A stretch of 64,000 nt of DNA from Bacteroidaceae bacterium (GCA_045646965.1 JAZRLR010000006.1:234-64233); one strand, 5' to 3'. Positions 35,368 through 42,297 are shown, counted from the stretch's first letter. Notes: generated from the letters alone by a model not told the origin. A program made the numbers and translations.

Positions 35368-38300
35368 ATGAATAAAAACATCAAACGTTTTGTGTCGATG
35401 GCAGTTTTTCTGCTTTTGTCGGCATTTGCGGTACCTGCTCTCTCGCAGGTGGTGGACATCTCTCCCGTGCCGCAGCAAATTGAGTGGAGTGGCAGCGTGG
35501 CTTTCAGCGCCGCAACAGCCTATAACATTGTGGGTGAGGCCGATGCCGACAAGGACGCCGTTGCGCTCTTCAAAGACAATTTCACCATTGGCGGTGCACT
35601 CACTGTTGTCATAGGTGAGCGTGGCGATGCAGCTGTTGCCGAGTACGAGGCTCTTATCCCCTCGAAGAGCGAAGGCTACTATCTGTCGGTGACAAACGAC
35701 AAGGTGGTTATCGCAGGTAACGACGGCGCCGGAACATACTACGGCGTGCAGACCTTTGTGCAGGTAGCTTCGCAGCCCAACGTGATGAGCGTCACCGTGA
35801 CCGACTATCCGAGCGTTCCCTATCGCGGTCTTGTGGAGGGCTATTACGGCAACCCCTACAGCGAGGCCAATCGTATGAGCCTCTTTGAGATGTTTGGCCG
35901 CCAGAAGATGAATATCTACATCTATGGCCCCAAAGACGATGTGTACCACCGTGGACAGTGGCGCGAGAACTATCCCGCCGAGCAGGCCGAGGAGATACGC
36001 TCCTATGTGGAGGCGGCCAAGGCAAACAAGGTCGATTTCGTGTGGGCGATACACCCGGGCGAGAATATCCAGTGGAACAAGACCGACAGCGTGAATATCG
36101 TAAACAAGCTCAAAGCTATGTACGACCTCGGTGTGCGCACATTTGCCGTATTCTTCGACGACGTATGGGGCGGCGAGGGTACACGCGGCGACAAGCAGGC
36201 CGAGCTGATGAACTACATCACCGATGAACTCAATAAATCATACAGCGACGTAAACCCCTGTATCATCTGCCCCACGCAGTATAACAAGGGCTGGACAAGC
36301 GGCAATTACCTTTCAACTCTCGGTAACACAATGTACCCCGAGGTGCGCATAATGTGGACAGGTAACTCTGTGGTAGATATGATAAACAAAAGCGATATGC
36401 AGTGGATAAATGCACAGATAAGCCGCAAGGCCTTCATCTGGCTCAACTATCCCGTTACCGACTATTGTATCAACCACCTGCTTATGGGCCCCACATACGG
36501 CAACGACCTTGATATCGCCGATATGCTCTCGGGCTTCACAGCCAACCCTATGGAGTATGCCGAGGCATCGAAGCTCTCGCTCTTCAGCATAGGTGACTAC
36601 AACTGGAATATGCCCGCTTACGACGCCGACGCGTCGTGGGAGAAGGCCATCGAGTACCTTATGCCGCAGAACGCTGCCGACTTCAAATTCTTCTGCGAAA
36701 ATAACGTAGACTTGGGCAGCACAGTGCACGGCTTGCGCCGCACCAACGAGTCGCCCGAATTTGTTGTGGCAAAAAATACTTTCGACACAAAGATGGCTGC
36801 GGGCGACAAGGCTGCGGCCTACGCCGCCGTGAACGAGCAGTTTGTGAAGCTTGTGACAGCTGCCGACAACCTCCTCGCCACCGATGAGGCTCCCGCTCTC
36901 ATCGGGGAGATTACCCCCTGGTTGCAGAGTATGAAATATCTCGGTGCAAAGGGCGTTTCTGTTGTCGAGATGCAGAACGCTCTGTTGTGCGAGAACCCCG
37001 ACAGCTTCATAAACAGCTACCTGCGTTACCGCGACTACGATACAAAGCAGGCGGCTCTGCGCTCACGAAATTTCGAGGGCACAATAAAGGAGGCCACTCC
37101 CGTGGTTGCAACGGTGTATGTGGAGCCTTTCATAAAAGAGGCTGCAGCAAACCTTGTATCTGAATACAGAGAAATTTACGACTACCGCACCGACGTCTTC
37201 CCCGCACAGGTGATAGAGAACGGTACCTACTACATAAAGTACAACGATAAATATCTCACCAATTCCACACCCAACACAGCGGGCAGCGTTCCGCAGTTTG
37301 TCGTGGCCAAGGACGACACACGTCCCCAGCGTCAGGAGTGGAAGATTACCCTCGATATGAACACAAACCGTTACAAGATTGTGAACCTCGAGGATAACCG
37401 CTACCTCAACGAGAAGGGTGAGTTCTCCGTAAACAACAGCACCAACCCCTACGAGTCGGCTTGGCACACCTACGAGATTCTTCAGCAGCCCGGTGGCAAG
37501 TATGCCATTCAGAACGGTGGTAGCGCAGGCGAGAACCTCTGGACATCAAACGGCTCACGCATAAGCAAGAGTTCATCGACCACTCTGCTGCCCGAGGCCT
37601 TCATATTTGAGATTGTGCCCATAGGCGACGAGGAGGCCGGCAGCGACTCCGACGAGCTTATCTCACGCGGAATCTACTACATTACCGACGGCGACAAGTA
37701 TCTCACAAATAACAATGTAGACGGCACAGGCGGCACACCCTCGTTCGAGGCTGTCGAGGAGCCCGGTCTTGCACAGGAGTGGCGCATAGCTCCCGATGCG
37801 GGCGGCAGAGACTGCTACAAGATTACAAGCAACGCCGACGGCCGTTACATCAACGAGTATGGCGTGTTTGGAACAAACGACTACTACAGCAACTGGAACA
37901 GCTACCTCATAACCCTGCGCGACGGTCTCTACTCTATACGCTGGACACAGCAGGCTGTCGAGAAGAACGGAATGAAATACCTTGTATCGGACGGAAGCAG
38001 ACTCGTAGACCGCGCCTGCGCACACTCCGAGAGCTACAGCGTGAAGATTGTGACAAAGTATATTGAGCCCGCCCCCGAGCCCGAGCCTATTCCCGAGCCC
38101 GAGGACCTCAACCCCTTCAAGATAGACATCTACCGCGTTGTAAACATCTCAACAGGCAAGTATCTCTCCAACGGCGAGAACGAAGCTAATAACGCAAAGA
38201 TAATCTACGCCGACGGCGATGAGGCTTCGGCAGGTCAGAAGTGGGGCTTCTATCCCACAGGTGTGCAGGGCGAGTATGTGCTCATAAACACTCTCTCATA

Positions 38301-41300: not shown

Positions 41301-42297
41301 CAACGGCGTGCAGGTGCTCGAGGAGAACCTCTCGCACCCCGTGTATAGCAATATCCGCTGGATTGAGAACGAGAGCCCCTATGGCACACACAACTTCGGT
41401 GACAAGAGCGCTTATGTGTCATCGGCCAAGGTGAGCACATCACTTGCCGCCGACGGCAGCAGTTGCACTTTCACTGTGAAGGCATCGCACGACAAGTGTC
41501 CCTATAACATCGTTTACACCGTGTATGCAAGCGGCGTTGTGGATATGAAGATATCTTATACACCCAAGACCACTTTGCGTCGTATAGGTATCGACCTCAC
41601 CTTCCCCGCAGGCTACGACGATGTGACATACTATGCAAAGGGCCCCTGGGAGAACTACATCGACCGTCAGCGCGGTTCGTTCCTTGGTGCTTACACCACA
41701 ACCGTAGACGATATGTTTGAGATGTATGCCCACCCGCAGTCTATGGGTAATCGTATGGCTCTGCGCGAGCTCACCATACAGAACCCCGAAAACGGAAACG
41801 CGATAAAGGTGGAGACCGAGGGCGAGGTATCTTTCTCTCTCTCACACTACAACCAGGCGCAGTATCTTGTACCGCAGATACACGCGTGGGAGCTTAAGAG
41901 AGACGATGTGATATATGCCACATTCGACTATATGCAGCGAGGTCTGGGTAACGGCAGCTGCGGCCCCGGCACCGAGAGTATGTATCTCTGCCCCACAAGC
42001 GGCACATATACCCACACTCTGCGCATAAGCACATCAAACGGCAATGACACAAGCGTTGAGAGCACAGGTGTAAAGAGCTGCACCATAAGCTATGACGCCG
42101 ACAACGAGGTTCTCGTGTGTGAGAATATCCCCGCTCCCGGCGAGGTGCAGGTGCTCAATATAGGCGGTATAACCGTAGGCAAGGCTGTAGCCGAGGGTGC
42201 GGCACGCATTTCGCTTGCAGGCGCGCCCAAGGGCTCATATATCGCCATAATAAACGCAGGCGGTGAGCAGCGCGTTCACAAATTCCTCAAAAAGTAA
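35368..42297 (+). CDS. Giant secreted bifunctional glycosidase: N-terminal GH84 beta-N-acetylglucosaminidase (O-GlcNAcase type), four lectin-like modules, LacZ-type GH2 beta-galactosidase, T9SS-type C-terminal tail
   Basis: 2309-aa uninterrupted ORF with signal peptide [27 protein letters not shown].
- GH84 motifs: [37 protein letters not shown] (D264, D265).
- GH2 motifs: [36 protein letters not shown] (E1671), [15 protein letters not shown] (E1737), [10 protein letters not shown], and a beta-gal small-chain-like GPWENYIDR.
- C-terminus: [21 protein letters not shown]. Confidence 0.85.
35809..36687 (+). other. GH84 catalytic (beta/alpha)8 module
   Basis: aa ~148-440, with the catalytic Asp-Asp pair encoded at 36157-36162. 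Confidence 0.8.
37216..38970 (+). other. Four tandem lectin-like (probable beta-trefoil/ricin-B-like) modules with a Pro/Glu linker
   Basis: The modules lie at about 37216-37620, 37663-38060, 38115-38525 and 38560-38970. The [14 protein letters not shown] linker is encoded at about 38066-38110. Recurrent Q-x-W-type signatures are QEWKI, QEWRI, GQKWGF and GQVWSL, each followed by x-Y-x-I-x-N. Confidence 0.55.
38978..42030 (+). other. LacZ-type GH2 beta-galactosidase region (sugar-binding, Ig-like, TIM barrel, C-terminal small-chain-like domain)
   Basis: It starts at [22 protein letters not shown]. The acid/base Glu codon is at 40378-40380 and the nucleophile Glu codon at 40576-40578. Confidence 0.85.
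42076..42294 (+). other. T9SS-type C-terminal sorting domain of the GH84-GH2 protein
   Basis: The last ~73 aa read [73 protein letters not shown]. Confidence 0.65.

Follow-up and report, generated by a model that had tools for sequence, protein, structure and literature searches.

The 64,000-nucleotide stretch of DNA analysed here, from a Bacteroidaceae bacterium (GCA_045646965.1) and referred to as the window, contains on its plus strand an intact open reading frame (ORF) that starts with ATG, comprises 2,309 codons plus a stop and has zero internal stop codons. The ORF joins an enzyme of glycoside hydrolase (GH) family 84 and a LacZ-type GH2 enzyme in one polypeptide, in the order signal peptide, GH84, two β-trefoil modules, a Pro/Glu-rich linker, two further β-trefoil modules, a five-domain LacZ-type GH2 and a C-terminal sorting domain (CTD) of the type IX secretion system (T9SS). 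This GH84-GH2 protein is a genuine secreted protein of 2,309 residues from an uncultured Bacteroidales of the herbivore gut.

Domain architecture of the GH84-GH2 protein

The catalytic barrel of the GH84 half matched PF07555 with 374 bits (cut-off 25) over model positions 1 to 294 of 295, and residues 20 to 601 aligned to BT_4395 of B. thetaiotaomicron (BtGH84, entry 2vvn) with 484 bits and to NagJ with about 330 bits. The motif VFFDDVWG occupies residues 261 to 268, within which D264 and D265 (nt 36157-36162) align with the D242/D243 pair of BtGH84. The position of D265 is that of the second BtGH84 Asp, which was changed to Asn in entry 2wzi, and both residues were unchanged in 14 homologues of the fusion. 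Y160, K189, Y305, W358, N360, D365 and N393, aligned with active-site residues of BtGH84, were identical to them and invariant in the same 14 homologues. The NCBIfam equivalog model for N-acetylglucosaminidases (GlcNAcases), NF041654, gave 683 bits and did not reach its cut-off of 1000, and we therefore treat this half as a member of family GH84 to which a specificity is not transferable.

All five LacZ domains (PF02837, PF00703, PF02836, PF16353 and PF02929) were identified above cut-off and in the LacZ order, and the C-terminal 1,100 residues aligned over their whole length with the T. maritima enzyme 6s6z (625 bits), with E. coli LacZ (461 bits) and with the Bacteroides entries 3dec and 3bga. 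The acid/base residue E1671 in the motif GNES (nt 40378-40380) and the nucleophile E1737 (nt 40576-40578) align with LacZ E461 and E537, and the LacZ Mg2+ ligands E416 and H418 correspond to E1623 and H1625; these 4 residues were invariant in the 14 homologues. LacZ residues were mapped at 34% pairwise identity, where local uncertainty remains, and the positions N102, D201, H391, H540, W568, F601 and N604, Na+ ligands included, were also kept. An apparent replacement of LacZ Y503 by H1710 is probably a local shift in the alignment, with the invariant M1713-Y1714 located 4 residues further on. The closest NCBIfam model for the GH2 half was that of Bga2A, NF052611, with 854 bits against an equivalog cut-off of 999. 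The possibility of a catalytically dead GH84 or GH2 domain was considered and ruled out by the conserved catalytic residues.

About 600 residues separate the 2 catalytic domains. Modules T1 and T3 in this segment scored above the cut-off of 25.6 bits for RicinB_lectin_2 (PF14200), and comparison of profiles with hhalign paired T1 with T2 at a probability of 100% and T3 with T4 at 98%. A self-BLAST of residues 596 to 1215 found no internal repeats, which required profile comparison to be revealed. The AlphaFold2 model of residues 606 to 1206, inferred from a 9-sequence alignment, was all-β with a mean predicted local distance difference test (pLDDT) score of 72.6, and a Foldseek search of the PDB matched it best to tandem β-trefoils, namely those of a mosquitocidal holotoxin (2vse, E 2.5e-19) and of fascin (1e-17), with further matches to botulinum HA33 (4.5e-12) and to a CBM13 in a GH43 galactanase. 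The QxW-like motifs QEW, QKW and QVW are visible in the translation. Taken together, profiles and model confirm four β-trefoil lectin-like modules arranged in two pairs, for which sugar binding is a prediction only. The linker between the pairs varied in length and sequence among the orthologues and was constant in position and in frame; it is probably exposed, as indicated by pLDDT values below 50 at residues 296 to 310 of the model.

The T9SS model TIGR04183 gave 19.1 bits on the whole protein, below its cut-off of 23, and 24.3 bits on the last 100 residues alone. The CTD resembles those of stand-alone GH2 relatives. No T9SS component was found among the annotated genes of the window.

The first-pass annotation, made from the sequence alone, had described a single ORF of 2,309 residues with a GH84 module bearing the diagnostic Asp-Asp pair, four lectin-like modules followed by a linker, a complete LacZ-like GH2 with both catalytic Glu residues and a small-chain-like C-terminal domain, and a T9SS-type tail. 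The ORF and all motif codons proved to be placed exactly, both enzyme assignments held in comparisons with the Pfam hidden Markov models (HMMs) and with PDB sequences, and the tail was recognised on the isolated C-terminus. The four modules were likewise recovered, but the linker is located between modules 2 and 3, and not after all four.

Table 1. Features of the GH84-GH2 gene, of its product and of its surroundings, with positions counted in the window
Feature	Position	Strand	Evidence or remark
Fusion ORF (GH84-GH2, 2,309 aa + stop)	35368..42297	+	translation; orthologues
Signal peptide, type I, no lipobox Cys (residues 1-27)	35368..35448	+	read from the translation, no predictor
GH20b-like N-terminal domain of bacterial GH84 (residues 30-147)	35455..35808	+	PF02838 E 1.5e-15; aligned to BtGH84
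GH84 catalytic TIM barrel (residues 153-443)	35824..36696	+	PF07555 E 7e-112
GH84 post-catalytic helical bundle (residues 475-561)	36790..37050	+	PF21809 E 1.9e-11
Trefoil module T1 (residues 606-752)	37183..37623	+	RicinB_lectin_2 27.4 bits (cut-off 25.6); hhalign; AlphaFold2/Foldseek
Trefoil module T2 (residues 760-897)	37645..38058	+	RicinB_lectin_2 22.3 bits, under cut-off; homologous to T1
Pro/Glu-rich linker, 14 residues (900-913)	38065..38106	+	fusion joint; split homologues break here
Trefoil module T3 (residues 914-1055)	38107..38532	+	RicinB_lectin_2 40.8 bits; top pLDDT region of the model
Trefoil module T4 (residues 1056-1203)	38533..38976	+	no Pfam match; hhalign T3-T4 98%, E 9e-14; HMM cross-hits
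GH2 domains 1-2: jelly roll (1252-1426), Ig-like (1429-1540)	39121..39987	+	PF02837 E 8e-44; PF00703 E 1.3e-14
GH2 catalytic TIM barrel (residues 1542-1833)	39991..40866	+	PF02836 E 4e-80
LacZ domain 4 (1845-1933) and domain 5/small-chain-like (1961-2220)	40900..42027	+	PF16353 E 7e-24; PF02929 E 1e-47
LacZ W999-equivalent site S2197-G2199	41956-41964	+	alignment to LacZ
T9SS type A C-terminal sorting domain (residues 2253-2309)	42124..42294	+	TIGR04183
-7 promoter-like motif TATATTTG	35320..35327	+	fits Bacteroidetes TAnnTTTG; 41 nt 5' of the ATG
Hairpin terminator, 14-bp GC-rich stem + T run	42319..42350	+	predicted; 22 nt past the stop codon
Secreted GH20 β-N-acetylhexosaminidase, 1,173 aa, ricin-like module	31582..35103	-	divergent to the fusion gene; conserved partner
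Secreted giant, 2,489 aa: GH20 (11-342), F5/8-type C/CBM32-like (~1151-1275), GH33 exo-α-sialidase (1739-2164)	24006..31475	-	Pfam + PDB search
Loci with a divergent GH20 partner	L001, L002, L004-L006, L008, L034, L050, L051		synteny

Orthologues and origin of the fusion

No match was obtained in an exact-sequence look-up of the window protein. A protein of the same length and 99% identity (P0001) is encoded in an independent ENA assembly, where it has the same neighbours, and ten more protein clusters of 2,284 to 2,306 aa shared the architecture at 71% to 73% identity. In a survey of GTDB contigs, which included one genome per species and metagenome-assembled genomes (MAGs) from different studies, the full-length gene was found uninterrupted at about 72% identity in the MAGs of 9 species of Bacteroidaceae/Bacteroidales, with one copy spanning two contig ends; those with a named source were from the hindgut of deer, sheep, goat, buffalo, yak and cattle. 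The 6.9-kb ORF was kept at 44% to 99% identity in about 22 protein clusters, far beyond chance, and the protein family is already listed in public databases under the automatic name "beta-N-acetylglucosaminidase domain-containing protein".

The window is probably metagenome-assembled, and split versions of both halves occur in related genomes, as would be expected if an assembly chimera or a frame error had joined two genes. The probability of such an artefact is nevertheless negligible in view of the 99% identical copy with the same neighbours, the unbroken orthologues from different studies and the joint itself, which is an in-frame linker in a constant position. The sequencing error named as a possible source of the long ORF in the first-pass annotation is excluded by the copy in the independent assembly and by the full-length orthologues in the 9 MAGs.

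The split homologues were of two kinds. The GH84-only form, of 970 to 984 aa, matched residues 1 to 897 (GH84-T1-T2) and ended in a CTD of about 80 aa, whereas the GH2-only form, of about 1,420 aa, started with a signal peptide that was followed by a match to residues ~914 to 2308 (T3-T4-GH2-CTD). The break points of the two forms coincide with the linker, with the GH84-only form matching up to about residue 897 and the GH2-only form from about residues 913 to 921 onwards. In the GH2-only proteins, the mature N-terminus (…A/DGLEPSAMTIYRI…) aligned with the sequence directly past the linker, and the linker itself was missing from both parental forms.

In the neighbour-joining (NJ) trees, the fused GH2 domains formed one clade with 90% bootstrap support, which was sister to 43 stand-alone GH2 genes, and the fused GH84 domains grouped with the GH84-only genes. 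Fused and split states are complementary across the genomes: a separate GH2 gene of the clade was present in none of the 9 fused genomes versus 6 of the 8 GH84-only genomes (Fisher p = 0.002). It was also noted that the GH84-only proteins in L050 (10001-12934) and L051 (10001-12664), the genes for which occupy the syntenic slot divergent from the GH20 gene, nested within the fused clade and carried the GH2-type CTD rather than the CTD of the other GH84-only proteins. Because of this nesting and this CTD, they are best interpreted as descendants of a fused gene that lost linker-T3-T4-GH2 by an in-frame deletion; these 2 MAGs yielded no separate GH2 of the clade.

By comparison of these forms, the fusion is shown to have joined two predicted T9SS cargo genes, one of them for a GH84 protein with two trefoil modules and a CTD, located divergently to the GH20 gene, and the other for a GH2 protein with a signal peptide, two trefoil modules and a CTD, located elsewhere. 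The same comparison shows that the GH84 protein lost its putative CTD and the GH2 protein its putative signal peptide in the process, and the path that is supported by the sequences leads from two cargo genes to the fusion and then to occasional reversal.

An origin by read-through of adjacent genes was also considered. In L053 (5884-13204) and L056 (5804-13385), a lectin-GH2-CTD gene is followed on the same strand, at a distance of about 50 nt, by a GH84-only gene, with 47% identity to the C-terminal half and 69% to 70% identity to the N-terminal half of the fusion, respectively. The read-through origin was rejected, since the order GH2 to GH84 is reversed and this GH2 is a distant paralogue (47%).

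Two further fusions of GH84 to GH2 were identified besides the one in the window, here called type I. Type II proteins (P0013-P0022), of about 1,940 aa, contain GH84-T1-T2 joined directly to GH2, without linker or T3-T4; a single origin of types I and II was rejected, as they formed separate clades in both domain trees. The third fusion (P0116) is an SLH-anchored protein of 3,965 aa, in which GH84 is followed by a BgaA-like GH2 with CBM32 and BgaA-like carbohydrate-binding modules (CBMs). The sequences point to three or more independent fusions of GH84 to GH2 in this order.

Domains in the clade sister to the GH84 of type I had as partner either GH16 alone or both GH20 and GH16. P0032-type proteins contain, ahead of GH84-GH16, a GH20 that shares the layout of the 1,173-aa neighbour in the window, and the best PDB match of the GH16 partner was 6t2r, from a study of mucin O-glycanases. 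As judged from these sequences, GH84 is a frequent partner in multi-catalytic proteins, for which GH2 is one recurrent choice, and its multi-catalytic architectures are diverse and apparently unsurveyed. Other GH84 relatives (P0084, P0089, P0090-P0094) contained a GH89 (NAGLU), GH20 or GH92 catalytic domain in one chain.

Neighbouring genes and proposed function

An orthologue of the divergent GH20 gene, with 60% to 73% identity, was found in the same position in all 7 fused loci for which upstream sequence was available and in the GH84-only loci L050 and L051. For the adjoining giant protein of 2,489 aa, Pfam listed no sialidase domain, and its GH33 domain was seen in the PDB sequence search, in which the sialidase 10qf was matched with 161 bits and the GH20 enzyme 3gh4 with 133 bits. 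A ricin-like segment was also observed in this protein, about 1,000 residues of which were without domain assignment. The three genes encode a sialidase, a β-galactosidase and three β-hexosaminidase domains, which is a predicted exo-glycosidase set for sialyl-LacNAc-capped animal glycans (LacNAc, N-acetyllactosamine). They are flanked by housekeeping genes (rpoBC, arginine synthesis genes and PNPase), and no carbohydrate-active enzyme (CAZyme) for plant cell walls was found in the window.

In L074 (1516-9678), two genes for Peptidase_M60-domain proteins of about 1,330 aa are located directly 5' of the type II fusion gene on the same strand, and genes for a glucosamine-6-P isomerase and a TonB-dependent receptor follow downstream, while the third fusion gene is followed by a GH20 gene.

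TIGR04183 did not match the C-termini of the two GH20 neighbours in the window. Both neighbours (24009-24100 (-) and 31585-31680 (-)) and the type II fusions shared a short C-terminal tail, ..YDLxGRKV..G(I/L)(Y/F)I.N.KKV..K, which is not recognised by TIGR04183 and may be a shorter or other sorting signal than the type A CTD of the fusion.

The divergent intergenic region upstream of the fusion gene is 264 nt long, AT-rich and contains TATATTTG. As TAnnTTTG was not enriched across the window (37 occurrences versus 31 expected), the assignment of this motif to a promoter is a lead only; a sigma-70 promoter scan of the upstream region returned nothing useful, as expected for Bacteroidota. A scan for hairpins followed by a T run identified 2 sites versus 0.2 expected, and the hairpin past the stop codon is a predicted bidirectional terminator, common to the fusion gene and the convergent glycosyltransferase family 2 (GT2) gene. 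Further downstream, at 43319-44914 (+), we observed an ORF of 531 aa with a TTG start for a Na+/H+ exchanger-TrkA_C protein. In the near-identical strain, the gene called in this location (L073 18061-18420) encodes only a TrkA_C protein of 119 aa, and the discrepancy may be due to gene calling, to a frameshift or to a deletion. A CotH kinase-family protein of 424 aa, unrelated to the fusion, is encoded amid housekeeping genes at 56859-58133 (+).

Our best reading, to which we assign a probability of about 0.6, is that the GH84-GH2 protein is exported as one chain of about 250 kDa and serves in the sequential removal of N-acetylneuraminic acid (Neu5Ac), Gal and GlcNAc from LacNAc-type host glycans, with GH2 acting first, GH84 second and the lectin modules as a tether. 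Once exported by Sec and translocated by the T9SS, the protein would be located on or near the cell surface, where the four modules would hold it on dense host glycoproteins, that is, on mucin O-glycans or complex N-glycans. The adjoining GH20-GH33 giant would provide the prior sialidase step, the GH2 half would take terminal β1-4 galactose off LacNAc units, and the GH84 half would take off the newly exposed β-GlcNAc, in alternation along poly-LacNAc or on neighbouring chains. The adjoining GH20 would be a second hexosaminidase, possibly with another linkage specificity.

A functional link between GH84 and GH2 is suggested by the complementarity of fused and split states, by the adjacent separate genes in L053 and L056 and by the at least three independent fusions. 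A host-glycan substrate is suggested by the GH20 and GH20-GH33 neighbours, by the M60 genes next to the type II fusion and by the O-glycanase-like GH16 partners. It is also known that Bga2A is a β-1,4-galactosidase (PMC7019425), that Galβ1-4GlcNAc/Glc is the specific target of BgaA, which has CBMs that bind LacNAc (PMC4161441), and that the GH84 enzyme BbhIV acts in the breakdown of mucin O-glycans with a preference for β1-6 linkages, together with a GH20 that prefers β1-3 (PMC10245121).

Coupling of galactose removal to GlcNAc removal had been proposed in the first-pass annotation, and the architecture, the catalytic residues and the comparative evidence fit this proposal. The channelling or processive form of coupling fits less well, because the two active sites are separated by ~600 residues of lectin modules, which makes proximity and avidity more plausible; the coupling would then arise from these two effects on a multivalent substrate and not from a channel.

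The same spacer bears on a simpler explanation, according to which GH84 rides on the single T9SS CTD and surface anchor of GH2, possibly to be released by cleavage of the linker after export, and gains nothing kinetically from the fusion. Other large T9SS cargo polyproteins are known to be cut after export. Such an economy of export, which we consider distinctly less probable than coupled catalysis, would account for the loss of the CTD of the GH84 parent and the retention of only the GH2-type CTD, for the variable, Pro/Glu-rich and probably exposed linker and for the long distance between the catalytic domains, and it agrees with the observation that the fusion is not essential, given the split state in most related genomes (43 GH2-only species) and its reversal in L050 and L051. 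However, mere convenience of secretion would hardly produce three or more fusions with different GH2 subtypes and different modes of export or anchoring (T9SS CTD, SLH), and all partners (GH2, GH16, GH20) belonged to one and the same glycan pathway and were not random cargo. Even under this explanation, co-localisation of the two activities would still be implied.

It is conceivable that the halves have unrelated substrates of non-host origin, for instance β-galactosides of the diet or galactans of plants for GH2 and GlcNAc oligomers from chitin or from fungal or bacterial walls for GH84, in which case the fusion would be incidental. The hosts are herbivores with plant-rich digesta, LacZ-type GH2 enzymes commonly cleave lactose and other β-galactosides, and the specificity of this GH2 is not readable from its sequence, as the equivalog cut-offs were missed. 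Yet animal glycans are indicated by the GH33 sialidase and GH20 neighbours, by the M60 peptidase-domain genes adjoining the fusion of type II and by the O-glycanase-like GH16 partners, and with no plant-cell-wall CAZyme in the window we regard this alternative as improbable.

Several observations weigh against stepwise trimming of LacNAc-type host glycans, or at least against its details. The substrate, the linkage and the kinetic coupling are what we infer, with activity predicted from sequence, and specificity is not transferable from either of the two NCBIfam equivalog models, both of which scored below cut-off (683/1000 and 854/999). The alignment suggests that the galactose (-1) site is LacZ-like and that the aglycone side is different: LacZ H357 corresponds to Q1564 (nt 40054-40059), a Gln conserved without exception in types I and II, C2198/G2199 occupy the aligned position of W999, and the loop 794-804 is missing. 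The long lectin spacer argues against a direct hand-over between the sites. The 2,489-aa giant was present in the near-identical strain and not in the orthologous loci of 72% identity, and the ORFs scanned throughout the window included no SusC/SusD, TonB-dependent receptor, hybrid two-component system (HTCS) or extracytoplasmic function (ECF) regulator or sugar transporter. BbhIV is the only GH84 enzyme with a defined mucin linkage specificity and prefers β1-6 GlcNAc on core structures (PMC10245121), because of which the peeling of linear poly-LacNAc may be wrong in detail. Finally, the trees are distance trees with bootstrap, the loci retrieved by peptide patterns were limited and the MAGs are incomplete.

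A bolder scenario, which we put forward tentatively and consider unlikely to hold as a whole, is that uncultured Bacteroidales of the herbivore hindgut have replaced a periplasm-centred strategy of the starch utilization system (Sus) type for host glycans with T9SS-exported "single-chain mucinolysomes" (GH84-GH2, GH20-GH33, GH84-GH16 and GH20-GH84-GH16), each with two to three exo- or endo-glycosidases and lectins. A mucin-bound GH84-GH2 protein would then alternately peel poly-LacNAc or branched LacNAc, and the advantage gained would have driven the fusion at least three times.

Comparison with known systems

Both halves of the protein are ordinary representatives of well-known families. Host-glycan enzymes and T9SS CAZymes with several catalytic domains have been known before, and the fusion, which reveals no new catalytic principle or family, will be unsurprising to a CAZyme specialist. 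If the proposed coupling is true, it would represent a natural single chain that performs two consecutive steps of host-glycan breakdown, a model for the effect of covalent tethering and lectin avidity on the synergy of exo-glycosidases on mucin, a one-protein reagent for the trimming of LacNAc chains and a marker for uncultured Bacteroidales that forage on mucin or host glycans in the ruminant hindgut. With its fused, split and re-split genes, the set of related genomes offers a clean natural experiment in gene fusion. The native substrates of BtGH84-clade enzymes have long been uncertain, and the recurrent independent fusions provide "Rosetta-stone" evidence that these enzymes act on glycans downstream of a β-galactosidase.

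No description of a polypeptide with GH84 plus GH2, GH84 plus GH16 or GH84 plus GH20 was found in open-access text and bioRxiv. The novelty suggested in the first-pass annotation is reduced by the plentiful occurrence in metagenomes of GH84 combined with GH16, GH20, GH89, GH92 and GH2 and by the coupling already known from C. perfringens. The GH84-GH2 protein is an undescribed domain combination, yet many comparable fusions of enzymes occur in these bacteria.

The N-terminal 600 residues are similar to BtGH84 and to NagJ and NagH in their GH20b-like domain, Asp-Asp barrel and helical bundle, and the -1 subsite is kept. BtGH84 ends in a small C-terminal domain and NagJ and NagH carry CBM32, FN3, cohesin or dockerin modules, and none of the three has a second catalytic domain in the chain, whereas the fusion instead continues with two trefoil modules, a linker, a whole GH2 and the T9SS signal. 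To the LacZ-type GH2 enzymes (6s6z, 3dec/3bga, E. coli LacZ and B. infantis Bga2A) the C-terminal half is similar in its five domains, catalytic Glu residues and Mg2+ and Na+ ligands; it differs from LacZ, to which it is 34% identical, in being secreted rather than cytoplasmic, with two lectin modules ahead of it and a CTD behind.

A non-covalent coupling of GH84 to GH2 is known experimentally from C. perfringens, where the cohesin of NagJ binds GH2, GH95 and NagH proteins that bear dockerins (PMC12997984). Both these complexes and the "mucinolysome" of Limousia resemble the fusion in that GH84 is physically coupled, outside the cell, to GH2 and other exo-glycosidases for host glycans, and they share with it the principle of keeping glycosidases for successive steps together. 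They consist of separate Firmicutes proteins held together non-covalently, whereas the fusion is a covalent Bacteroidales chain with a T9SS tail, in which a Pfam scan identified no cohesin or dockerin.

The order of sialidase, β-galactosidase and β-GlcNAcase on complex host glycans, acting at the surface or in secreted form, is also that of NanA, BgaA and StrH in S. pneumoniae. NanA and StrH, the latter with two GH20 domains, take part in pneumococcal sequential deglycosylation. EndoE of E. faecalis, which contains GH18 and GH20, is a characterised host-glycan enzyme with two catalytic domains (PMC8894350). In these species the galactosidase and the GlcNAcase are on separate proteins, and StrH and EndoE combine other families, none of them GH84 with GH2.

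Parallels in mode of export are provided by the multi-catalytic T9SS CAZymes of Bacteroidota. ChiA of Flavobacterium johnsoniae is a T9SS-secreted protein with two GH18 domains. Multimodular T9SS enzymes have also been described from flavobacteria (PMC13235733). Like the GH84-GH2 protein, they are large cargo proteins with two catalytic domains, linkers and binding modules, encoded outside a canonical Sus-type locus; ChiA and the flavobacterial enzymes, however, are endo/exo pairs that act on chitin or algal polysaccharides, whereas the fusion combines two predicted exo-glycosidases of different families, the substrates of which are probably host glycans.

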